Source: Deltaproteobacteria bacterium
Lineage (GTDB): Bacteria; Myxococcota; UBA727; VGSZ01
DNA: 64,000 nt
Assembly: GCA_016874845.1 (NCBI GenBank)
Contig: VGSZ01000003.1
Location: 3,146 to 67,145 of the forward strand
Direction: 5' to 3'
How positions within the stretch are numbered: the first letter of the stretch is position 1; every line of letters begins with the position of its first letter. This document shows positions 25,867-30,806 of the stretch, one piece after another. Position numbers and translations under genes: made by a program. The notes under the pieces were generated by a model. It was not told the DNA's origin, searched no databases, and was given only the letters and a program-made list of their open reading frames with translations.

Positions 25867-26190
25867 TCAGCCACCGGGGCGCGCGCGCTGCACCAGCAGG
25901 GTGGCGCGCGCCATCAGCCAGCCGAGCGGCACGAAGTTGCCGAGCACCGGCGTCAGCAGCGTGAGGACGACGGCGACGGCGCGCCGCGGCTCGAACAGCC
26001 AGACGACCACAAGAAAGGCGACGAAGCCGACGTTCAGGTCGACGACCATCGTCCGGCCCCAGGGGTCGGCGAGGACGCGGGCGAAGCTCTCGCCCAGGGA
26101 CGCGTCGCCGGCGGCGCCGAGGGCGCAGGCTACGGCGAGGGCGACGAAGGCAACGGCGGACACGGCGGACACGGCGGCGGGCATGGGCAC
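25867..26190 (-). CDS. Small membrane protein (2-3 TM helices), last gene of the FHA/sigma-54/radical-SAM cluster
   Basis: 107 aa (MPMPAAVSAVSAVAFVALAVACALGAAG...LTLLTPVLGNFVPLGWLMARATLL). Very high GC3. The opposite-strand ORF is Arg-rich junk. Confidence 0.5.
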   Translation of the reverse strand: MPMPAAVSAVSAVAFVALAVACALGAAGDASLGESFARVLADPWGRTMVVDLNVGFVAFLVVVWLFEPRRAVAVVLTLLTPVLGNFVPLGWLMARATLLVQRARPGG

Positions 26191-26329
26191 CTCGGAGCTG
26201 CTGCTTGGATGCTCGCGCTCGTCGGCCGCCGCATGGTGGCGCGTCGCCCGTCGGTCACACGGTCTGCGGCACCGTTTGCCGCACCGTTTGCCGCACCGTC
26301 CGCCGCACCGTCGCCCGGTGGCCCCTGCG

Positions 26330-27499
26330 TCAGCCCACGACGCCGGTCAGCTTGCGCACGGCGCTGGCGAGCGCGTCGCGGTGGGGCGCGAAGCGGTCGC
26401 GCAGCAGCGCCAGTGTCAGCCGCGCCTCGGCAAAGCGCTCGTCGCCATAGCGCAGCTCACCGAGGCGCGCGCGCACGTCGTCGAGCAGCCCGCCGACGTC
26501 GGCCAACCGGCGCAGCGCGTCGACGCCGCGGTCTCGGTCGGCCATCGTCTGCGCGCCCGGCACGCGCAGCAGGCGTGCGCGCACGTCGCCGGCCCAGGCC
26601 TCGGGCAGCGCCGTCACCAGCGCGACGACCGGGGCGAGCAGGTCGAGCCGCCGGGCGACGTCGAGCGCCTGCACCAGCGCGCCGGCGCGTCGGACGGTCG
26701 CGTCGGCGCGGGCGACCAGCTCGTCGACGTCGGCAGCGCCGAGCAGGGCGCGCGGCGTGCGCGCCCAGGCGAGGCCGAGCGGGCCTTCGAGCAGCTCAAG
26801 CACGCGCACCGCGCCGGGGCCCACCAGCGTGGCGACGTCGTCATCGCCGCCGTCGCAGCCGTCGGTCACATCGTCGGGAGCAAACAGCGCGGACAGCGGC
26901 GACGCCCGTCGCAGCACCGCACGCAGGGCGCGCGCCACGCCATGCTCGAGCCCGAGGCGCCCGGCGTTCTCGTGGGCCAGCGCGTAGAAGGCGTGATCGC
27001 CGCGCATCGTCGCTGGCGTCGGGCGAGCGCGGGTCTGCAGCGCGCGCGTCGCCAGCTCGTGCGCGTGCCGCTGGGTGCTGCCGTGGCCGGCGACGACCAG
27101 CGGCAGCACGTGCACGCACAGGTTCAACAAGAACGCCAACGGCGCCGGTGAGAAGCGCAGCGAGAACGGCGCGCCGGCGTCGTCCACGTGGAGCGCGGCG
27201 TCCCACGCTCGCCCTTCGACGGGCCGACCGGCGCGCAGCACCGTGCGGGGCGCCTGGCCAGCGTCGACGAGCCAGCCGAGCGTGCCCACCGCCAGCGTGC
27301 GTGCCAGCGCGAGGCGCAGGTCGGGCGACGGCGTCGCCGACGACGGCGCGACCTTGAAGCGTTCGCCGCGGGCGCGCCCGCACAAGAGCTCGGCGACGAT
27401 CACCACGTCGGCGTCGCCCACCGGCAGGGTCAGCGGGCGGACCAACGCGTCGGCCACCGGCTCGGCGGGTGCGTCAGCCGTCGGGGCGTCGGTCGACAT
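26330..27499 (-). CDS. Hypothetical protein (389 aa) downstream of the radical-SAM activase gene
   Basis: ATG at MSTDAPTADAPAEP. A consistent coding frame follows. The upstream part of the ORF (28036..27500) is Arg-rich non-coding-like. No known motif. A 12-nt gap separates it from the radical-SAM gene. Confidence 0.5.
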   Translation of the reverse strand: MSTDAPTADAPAEPVADALVRPLTLPVGDADVVIVAELLCGRARGERFKVAPSSATPSPDLRLALARTLAVGTLGWLVDAGQAPRTVLRAGRPVEGRAWDAALHVDDAGAPFSLRFSPAPLAFLLNLCVHVLPLVVAGHGSTQRHAHELATRALQTRARPTPATMRGDHAFYALAHENAGRLGLEHGVARALRAVLRRASPLSALFAPDDVTDGCDGGDDDVATLVGPGAVRVLELLEGPLGLAWARTPRALLGAADVDELVARADATVRRAGALVQALDVARRLDLLAPVVALVTALPEAWAGDVRARLLRVPGAQTMADRDRGVDALRRLADVGGLLDDVRARLGELRYGDERFAEARLTLALLRDRFAPHRDALASAVRKLTGVVG

Positions 27500-27510
27500 C
27501 GTGGGATCGC

Positions 27511-28116
27511 TCACCGGGTCCTCGCGCCGTGGACCGGCCAGCCGTTGAGCATGAACAGCCCGCCGTCGGGGCCCACCTTCAGCCGCAGCTCGACGGTGTT
27601 GGCGGCGACGAGGCGCGGATCGTCGTCGCGATAGCGGGACGACAGGAAATGCAGCACCTGGTTGTCGCTGCCGACGAAGCGCCTCGTCGTCGTGCGCCGT
27701 GCCTCGTCGTAGCGCCCGTCGACGAGCAGGTCGGTGTGGGCCAGCAGCCGCGCGACGCCGTCGTCGCCGCGGTCCTTCAGCTCGCCGAGGGTGAAGCCCG
27801 AGTAGACCATCACCGTCAGGCCGAGGCTCTGCGCTGCCGCGGCTACGTCGGCCAGCGCCGCCGCCTGCGCGGTGGGCTCGCCGCCGAGCAGGCTGATGCC
27901 CTCGAGCTCGTGGGCGGCGTGGGCGGCGCGCAGCTCGGCGATGACGTCGGCCACCGGGCGGCGCCCGCGCTCGACGAACGGCAGGAACTCGGGGTTGCAG
28001 CAGCCGGGGCAGCGCAGCGGGCAGCCCTGCACCCACAGCGCAAAGCGCCGGCCGGGGCCCTCGGCCTCGGTGCAGGGCACGACCACCGCGACGTTGACCG
28101 CCGCCGTCGCCGTCAC
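27511..28116 (-). CDS. Radical-SAM activating enzyme, NrdG/QueE-like single 4Fe-4S-cluster family
   Basis: The CxxxCxxC cluster motif is in FALWVQGCPLRCPGCCNPEF. The glycine-rich SAM motif is ISLLGGEPTAQ. Size is ~200 aa. The GTG start overlaps the upstream FHA gene stop (GTGA). Confidence 0.65.
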   Translation of the reverse strand: MTATAAVNVAVVVPCTEAEGPGRRFALWVQGCPLRCPGCCNPEFLPFVERGRRPVADVIAELRAAHAAHELEGISLLGGEPTAQAAALADVAAAAQSLGLTVMVYSGFTLGELKDRGDDGVARLLAHTDLLVDGRYDEARRTTTRRFVGSDNQVLHFLSSRYRDDDPRLVAANTVELRLKVGPDGGLFMLNGWPVHGARTR

Positions 28117-28595
28117 GGTGTGCCGCCGAAGCGCACCGACACGCGGGTCTCGCCGAGGCGCACGAGGTCGCCGTCGGCGAGGTCGGCCGAGCGCGCCGCG
28201 GCGCCGTTCACGAACGAGCCGTTGGTGCTGCCCAGATCGTGCAGCGAGGCGCCGGCGTGGTCGACGCAGACCATCGCGTGGCACGCCGAGACGGCCTCGT
28301 CGGCGAGCACGAGGTCGACATCGCGCTCGAATGTGGCGGAGGCGTCGGTGGCGTGGGTGTGCCCGCCGTTGCGTGTCTGCAGGTGGCGCTCGACGGCGGT
28401 GATGTCCTCGATGTGCAGCCGCTGCTGCGACTGCGCGGGGAGCATGCCGGTGCGGCGCCCCGCCTGCTCGCCGTGCAGCGGCGAGCGCCCGAGCATCACG
28501 CAGTGGCCAGCACCGACGCGCGCGGTGACGCCGGCGTCGTGGCCCTTGACGACGACGAGGCTGACCGCCCTGAGCGCGCGCGGCCCGGCGGTCAT
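28113..28595 (-). CDS. Stand-alone FHA-domain protein (160 aa)
   Basis: [22 protein letters not shown]...[21 protein letters not shown]...[14 protein letters not shown]...[20 protein letters not shown] is a full FHA signature. The ATG overlaps the stop of the upstream activator (ATGA). Confidence 0.7.
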
Positions 28596-30244
28596 TCCTC
28601 GGGGCCGTCGCGGCTGACGAGGCCGAAGGCGGTGGCCTTGCGCCACAGCGTGGTCTTGGCGACGCCGAGGGCGCGGGCGGCCTCGCCGATCGAGCCGTGG
28701 GCCGCGAGGGCGGCGGCGATGGCGGTCTTCTCGACCTCCTCCATCGTCATGCCCTTTCGGTAGAGCGAGGCGCCGTCCTTCTGCTCGGCGAGGGTGACCG
28801 GCACGAAGGCGACGTCGTCGGCGTCGATGGTCTTGCCGTCGCCCATGATGATCGCCCGCTGCACGACGTTTCTCAGCTCGCGCACGTTGCCGGGGAACGG
28901 GTGCTGTTTCAGCTTCTGCTCCGCCGCCAACGAGAACGTCGGCGCGGCCTGCGGCGCCAGCGACCGCGCGAAGTGCTTCGCCAGGTGCACGATGTCGACG
29001 GGGCGCTCGCGCAGGGCGGGCAGCTTCACCGGGATCACGTAGATGCGATGCAGAAGGTCCTCGCGGAAGCGCCCCTCGCGCACGTGGGCGGCGAGGTCGC
29101 GGTGGGTCGCGCACACGATCCGCGCGTCGACGGCGATGTCGCCGCGGCCGCCGAGGCGGCGCACCGAGCGCGTCTCGAGCACGCGCAGCAGCTTGGCCTG
29201 CATCTCGACCGGCAGCTCGCCGATCTCGTCGAGGAACAGCGTGCCCTTGTCGGCCTCCTCGAAGGCGCCCTTGCGCTGGCGGTCGGCGCCGGTGAACGCG
29301 CCCTTCTCGTGGCCAAACAGCTCGCTCTCGATGAGCTCCTCGGGGAACGCCGCGCAGTTGAGCGGTACGAACGGCCCGCCACGTCGCCCCGACAGCTTGT
29401 GCATCGCGTGGGCGACAAGCTCCTTGCCCGTGCCCGTCTCGCCGAAGATGCACACGCTGGCGTCGTGGGGCGCGACCTTCTCGATGAGCGCGAAGGTCTT
29501 GCCAAACCCGGCGTCGGCGGTGGTCAGGTCGCCGCAGCGCCACGGCCCCTTGCCGGGCGCCTTGTCGCCGACGAGCGTGACGTCGGTGTCCTTGCCCTCG
29601 GCGGTCATCTTCGTCTTGCCGAAGCGCAGCTCGGCGCCGACGGGCACCTCGGCCTCGACGACGCGCACGCCGTTGACGAACGTGCCGTTGGTGCTGTCGA
29701 GGTCGCGCACGATCAGGCGCTCGCCGCGCAGGAACAGCTGGGCATGGAACGAGCTGACGAACCCGTCGTCGAGGACGAGGTCGTTGTCGGGCAGGGCGCC
29801 GATGCGCAGGCCGTGCGGCGGCAGGTCGCGCGTGCCGCCGCCCAGGCTCGAGGGCAGGCGCAGCCGCACGTCGGTGCGGGTAAGTTGCCCGTCGGCGCGG
29901 GTGCGCAGGATCCCCGTGCGCTGGCCGCCGCCGGCGCCGGCGGTCGCCGGTTCGTCGCGACCGCGGTCGAAGCGCGCGGTGAGCGCGCCGAAGCGGAAGG
30001 TGGCGCCGTCGACCACCGGCTCGTCGATGATCCGCCGCCCGTTCATGACGATGCCGCCGCCGCCGCGGTCGACGACGCGGTAGCGGCCCTGGCCCACCGG
30101 CTCGAACGAGCACAGGAACGGTGGCAGCGTGTCGTCGGGGATCGCGATGTCGTTGGCCACGCTGCGGCCGACCGTGACGGCCTGGCCGTGTAACGGCGTC
30201 CGCAGGACGGGGGTGTCGGCGTTCAGCAGGAGAAGCTCGGGCAT
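28592..30244 (-). CDS. Sigma-54-dependent transcriptional activator with two N-terminal FHA domains, AAA+ sigma-54 interaction domain and Fis-type HTH
   Basis: First FHA: [18 protein letters not shown]...[11 protein letters not shown]. Second FHA: [26 protein letters not shown]...[11 protein letters not shown]. Walker A GETGTGKE. Sigma-54 contact loop [15 protein letters not shown] (GAFTGA). C-terminal HTH ...[20 protein letters not shown]. The start was chosen at [13 protein letters not shown]. Confidence 0.85.
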
Positions 30245-30401
30245 GGCTCGTTTGTTCCACGAGCCCCGGGGCAGTGTCGACGGCGTCGCCCGCGGGCTCC
30301 GGCCCGATCCGACCAAGTTGCAACGCCGGCTACCGATCGTCATCTTTTCGCTGATGTGAAATCGTATGCATCTTTGCATGTAAAAACGTCTGGAGGTCAT
30401 C
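30245..30401. promoter_or_regulatory. Divergent promoter region between the FHA/sigma-54 activator gene and the arsR-family gene; contains inverted repeat ATGCA-N4-TGCAT (30366-30379) and a GGAGG SD for the arsR-like gene
   Basis: A locally AT-richer 157-bp intergenic segment. The inverted repeat and SD were read directly. No confident -35/-10 or -24/-12 elements could be assigned. Confidence 0.4.
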
Positions 30402-30806
30402 GTGCCGATGCGAAAAGTGGCCCAGCGCGAGCTTGCGGTCTTGTTCTCCCTGCTCGCCCACCCATTGCGCCTCGCCCTGCTCACCGGCCTGGCCGAGGGC
30501 GAGCGTGATGTCGGCAGCCTGGTCAAATCCACCGGTGCCCCGCAGACGGCGGTGTCCCAGGCCTTGGCGCGCCTGCGCGCCGCGCGCCTCGTGCAGGAGC
30601 GCCGCCAGGGGCGCCACGTGTTCTACCGCTTGACGGTGGCCAGCCTGCCGGCGTGGCTCGATGGCGGCTACGCGCTGCTCGCCGACGAGACGGCGCAGGT
30701 CGCCGCGTTGCATGACGCGCTCACGTCGCTCCGGGCCACCGCGCCTGCGCCCGTGCCTGCCTCGACGATCGGGGCCGCCGTCCCCGCCGCGGGCGCTGTC
30801 GAATGA
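30402..30806 (+). CDS. ArsR/SmtB-family metalloregulatory-type HTH transcriptional regulator
   Basis: ...[67 protein letters not shown] is a winged-HTH ArsR signature. 134 aa with GTG start. Confidence 0.75.

Follow-up and report, generated by a model that had tools for sequence, protein, structure and literature searches.

A radical-SAM–X6 pair of the FtsH ternary systems encoded in one operon with an FHA/sigma-54 regulatory pair in a myxobacterial clade

What does a compact radical-SAM enzyme do in an operon that opens with a sigma-54 activator and an FHA protein? The question is raised by a gene cluster in the window, the 64,000-nucleotide stretch of contig VGSZ01000003.1 (Deltaproteobacteria bacterium) analysed here. 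Four minus-strand genes encode a sigma-54 enhancer-binding protein (EBP), a stand-alone FHA protein, the radical-SAM enzyme (rSAM) and a protein of 389 aa; neighbouring genes overlap by 4 nt or, at one junction, stand 12 nt apart. A gene for a small membrane protein follows on the same strand, 140 bp 3′ of the 389-aa gene. All five open reading frames were recovered at the coordinates given in a first-pass annotation, and the coupled, co-directional operon it described was verified: the translated coordinates place an ATGA overlap between the EBP and FHA genes at 28592-28595 and a GTGA overlap between the FHA gene and rSAM at 28113-28116. Its domain calls (two FHA domains and a sigma-54 AAA+ domain with GAFTGA; an FHA-only protein; an activase-sized rSAM with CxxxCxxC and GGEP) proved right when checked with Pfam and against the translations. 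The locus is surrounded by housekeeping genes (SecA, ClpX, Obg, GroEL) and no defence island is seen.

The EBP (gene 1, 28592..30244, minus strand; 550 aa; Pfam, NCBIfam and translation) matches Pfam models in two FHA stretches, Sigma54_activat (4e-68), AAA_lid_14 and HTH_8/HTH_50. A degenerate FHA1 (residues ~1-95) and FHA2 (~135-214) precede the AAA+ domain with its GAFTGA loop (244-406), the lid and HTH_8; Walker A (GETGTGKE) and Walker B (LFLDEIG) are also present in the translation. Ser/Thr kinases may feed the circuit, as the first-pass annotation suggested; canonical phosphothreonine-binding residues are missing from both FHA domains. In FHA2, IGA aligns to the IGR of Rv1747, thus the canonical Arg is replaced by Ala. 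The FHA protein (gene 2, 28113..28595, minus strand; 160 aa) has a Pfam FHA match (5e-12) that spans only residues 91-148. Alignment to the FHA domains of Rv0020c and GarA located the motifs GR (36-37), SxxH and NG, with an insertion of ~50 residues between GR and the remainder of the domain. No convincing sigma-54 promoter was found in the operon or adjoining it. FHA-EBPs are numerous in myxobacteria (Jelsbak et al. 2005, as cited in PMC11980068). The FHA-EBPs of Myxococcus xanthus (Jelsbak, Givskov & Kaiser, PNAS 2005) resemble the window EBP in their N-terminal FHA in place of the receiver, GAFTGA AAA+ domain, C-terminal Fis-type HTH and myxobacterial host. The window EBP differs from them in its two tandem FHA domains, each missing a canonical phosphate-contacting residue, and in its translational coupling to a second FHA protein and an rSAM module.

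The rSAM (gene 3, 27511..28116, minus strand; 201 aa) matches Fer4_12 (1.6e-28) and Radical_SAM (1.3e-8). Its motifs CPLRCPGC and LLGGEP are invariant across 35 homologues; the CxxxCxxC cluster, the GGEP SAM motif and an EGPGxR loop are likewise invariant. The best PDB match by profile is PFL-AE (4e-11), and the AF2 model (pLDDT 90.5) has 3cb8_A as its top fold match (E 4e-8). The rSAM is a compact enzyme of the glycyl-radical-activase class (PflA/NrdG-like) and a member of the rSAM family that occurs in FtsH ternary systems. With PflA (3CB8) and NrdG it shares the Fer4_12/Radical_SAM domains, CxxxCxxC, the GGE SAM motif, the (D/E)GPGxR loop and small size. It differs from them in falling below every curated activase model, in having no glycyl-radical enzyme partner and in being linked to a protein that is all-alpha and has no RVxG[FY] glycine loop; relative to PflA it is also ~40 residues shorter, with a distinct C-terminal beta-sheet (model residues 154-191).

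That linked protein, in which no recognisable motifs had been noted, can be assigned from sequence comparison to the fvmX6 family. The product of gene 4 (26330..27514, or 26330-27499 from ATG; minus strand) scores 26.0 bits against Pfam PF20004 ("FtsH ternary system domain X6"), for which the gathering score is 27. tblastn against the Pfam-annotated X6 proteins of loci L010, L009 and L003 gives 1.6e-22 to 2e-42, an X6 profile HMM built in this analysis gives 1.4e-83, and homologues of the protein carry PF20004. The gene is intact and keeps the invariant family residues. The ATG at 27499 yields 389 aa; translation may instead start at GTG 27514 (394 aa), which overlaps the rSAM stop codon (GTGA) and has GAGGA 4 nt upstream. 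This 4-nt overlap is the commonest rSAM/X6 junction among relatives. The AF2 model (pLDDT 86.2) is an all-alpha helical bundle with one conserved basic beta-hairpin. No specific fold match was found for it and it resembles no glycyl-radical enzyme. The Gly-radical motif that the first-pass annotation suggested looking for is not there: X6 has no RVxG[FY], and no conserved cysteine.

The first-pass annotation did not recognise the combination as a described system; the rSAM-X6 pair has, however, already been catalogued, by computation only, as a named accessory/effector module of the FtsH-MoxR-vWA ternary systems (PMC7159879). These are predicted conflict or programmed-death systems of multicellular bacteria (Kaur, Burroughs, Iyer & Aravind, eLife 2020; PMC7159879), and both the "conflict system" and the "effector" labels are computational predictions. 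The canonical order is rSAM, X6, X5, FtsH-like AAA+, X3-analog (X3a), X7, MoxR, vWA, and full operons of this kind adjoin close homologues of the window rSAM (57-62% identity). We collected 80 species-representative rSAM loci. X6 lies 3′ of rSAM in 59 of the 70 with at least 1.3 kb downstream (84%). Where at least 9 kb of downstream sequence is available (n=47), 40 loci have X6, 35 X5 and 28 FtsH; X6 occurs without FtsH in 12. The window shares with the "simple" ternary systems (helical-N vWA; Pfam fvmX1-7, ivWA, bpMoxR) homologues of their first two genes and the tight rSAM-X6 coupling. It differs in that the core of FtsH-like double AAA+, MoxR and vWA, as well as X5, X3a and X7, were not detected in the 64 kb by tblastn and profile HMMs, and in that rSAM and X6 share one operon with the genes of an FHA-FHA-sigma-54 EBP and of a stand-alone FHA protein. 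The sole, weak match to the FtsH profile in the window is ClpX. An FtsH/MoxR/vWA core could lie elsewhere in the genome, beyond the window, and act in trans.

Orphan rSAM-X6-X5 modules are known from other Myxococcota (e.g. L013/L093, L094, L003) and likewise have no FtsH, MoxR or vWA within ~10 kb; rSAM-X6 without FtsH accounts for 12/40 X6-bearing loci with enough flank. Unlike the window, most of them keep X5 and have unrelated genes upstream (a Ser/Thr kinase, directly upstream of rSAM-X6 in one genome only, and a short X7 in others), and none has a co-directional EBP-FHA pair upstream. Among the loci that have vWA, an FHA gene sits 3′ of it in L010 and L011 and not in L102 and L103.

We found the order EBP-FHA-rSAM-X6 in no clade but that of the window, where five lineages have it. 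Four lineages besides the window share it together with a following small gene (the P0010 contig stops after X6, so that the small-gene position lies beyond its end); rSAM identity is 74-78% and stop and start codons mostly overlap, although the EBP and FHA genes of P0013 are 2 nt apart. The recurrence of the order in four other lineages with overlapping codons shows that it is not due to chance. The first-pass annotation had allowed that the adjacency might be fortuitous; the conserved order in related genomes therefore leaves its description of the operon standing. Within the clade, divergence is faster for X6 (53-60% identity) and for the FHA protein (62-63%) than for rSAM (74-78%) and the EBP (87-88%, to relatives L001 and L092). 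The flanks are common to the clade, with HTH_5 on one side and Abhydrolase_5 and SecA where contigs extend far enough. The HTH_5 gene encodes a divergent ArsR-family regulator (30402..30806, plus strand; 1.3e-8) that is 93% identical to its L001 homologue, and the divergent arrangement is kept in the L001, L092, P0010 and P0013 contigs. The AT-rich region between it and the EBP contains a palindrome, ATGCA-N4-TGCAT (30366-30379), conserved in alignment A4. We regard the regulator as context and as a possible co-regulator.

Gene 5 (25867..26190, minus strand) encodes a hydrophobic protein of 107 aa with ~3 TM segments, identified from the ORF and its translation. As the first-pass annotation stated, it has no recognisable motifs, nor does it match any family (Pfam DUF1206 and DUF2834 are both sub-threshold). 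Homologues lie directly 3′ of X6 in L001, L002 and L092 (73-88% identity), and at the matching position the L092 and P0013 contigs have small genes for products of 104-109 aa; none was found outside the clade. Given the 140-bp gap and the missing family match, the place assigned to it in the operon is suggested by this synteny only and is uncertain. tblastn and profile HMMs ruled out that it is X5.

Several explanations of the module have to be weighed. The rSAM could be NrdG or another activase whose glycyl-radical enzyme maps to another part of the genome: NrdG TIGR02491 is its best NCBIfam match (5.8e-24) and source annotations label its homologues NrdG. The score of 84.8 bits is nevertheless well short of the 126.1 that the curated model requires, a conserved C-terminal extension is peculiar to the family, and the rSAM is found coupled with X6 in 84% of loci and within FtsH-MoxR-vWA operons. 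Moreover, a Pfam scan of all window ORFs of at least 500 aa found no NrdD, PFL-like or other glycyl-radical enzyme, as the first-pass annotation had observed for the neighbourhood. We consider this explanation effectively refuted. It is improbable, if less so, that the rSAM matures a small RiPP-like peptide or protein (the 107-aa product or an unannotated small ORF), with X6 as scaffold or recognition subunit. A small co-directional gene does follow X6 wherever contigs of the clade reach far enough, X5 follows it in most other loci, and a separate RiPP-like peptide has been proposed as the rSAM substrate of the canonical system (Kaur et al., PMC7159879). Against this, X5 is absent here by tblastn and profile HMMs, the 107-aa protein is a multi-TM, clade-restricted membrane protein behind a gap of 29-140 nt, and Pfam and the AF2 model reveal no SPASM, twitch or RRE domain in the 201-aa enzyme.

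A more serious, if still rather unlikely, explanation is co-transcription of no further functional meaning: the EBP and FHA protein would regulate unrelated sigma-54 genes elsewhere, and an independent rSAM-X6 pair landed downstream in the ancestor of the clade. The FHA/sigma-54 association is confined to one narrow clade. Its restriction would fit such an event, as would the unrelated genes upstream of orphan rSAM-X6(-X5) loci (pilins, kinase, short X7, FG-GAP neighbours), the missing sigma-54 promoter and the abundance of FHA-EBPs in myxobacteria. However, the stop/start overlaps, present at every junction seen but the P0013 EBP/FHA one, have persisted across five lineages whose rSAM identity goes down to 74%, which argues for selection on stoichiometric co-expression. 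The clade in which the FHA pair was acquired is also exactly the one that lost X5 and the ATPase core.

The clade-specific operon thus joins two units, EBP with FHA protein and rSAM with X6. We lean towards reading it as a rewired, reduced variant in which a protein-directed rSAM and X6 are co-expressed with a phosphothreonine/sigma-54 pair. Points against this reading are the canonical residues missing from both FHA domains of the EBP, the absence of a sigma-54 promoter at the operon, the confinement of the FHA/sigma-54 link to one clade and the location among housekeeping genes. Members of this rSAM class act on proteins or peptides, from which they remove a hydrogen atom. X6 is most likely the substrate or obligate partner, because it is the sole gene that stays with rSAM across lineages, even in loci that have lost X5 and the ATPases. 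The conserved basic beta-hairpin of X6 (G81, R85, R89, G96, W99) is a candidate for the modified site. With no RVxG[FY], no conserved cysteine and a helical bundle unlike glycyl-radical enzymes, the reaction that rSAM would perform on X6 is a guess. The text of PMC7159879 does not mention sigma-54 and has FHA domains only in other contexts, and our literature search found no mention of the fvm families in later papers. As far as could be found, an rSAM-X6 pair joined to an FHA/sigma-54 regulator without the ATPase core is therefore undescribed. Chemistry, substrate and sigma-54 target are what we infer for such a module: the FHA/sigma-54 pair would answer to phosphorylation or to protein binding and activate sigma-54 promoters elsewhere, rSAM and X6 would provide the output (effector) step through radical-based protein modification, and chaperone-type control by MoxR, vWA and FtsH may have been replaced by co-expression with the signalling pair.

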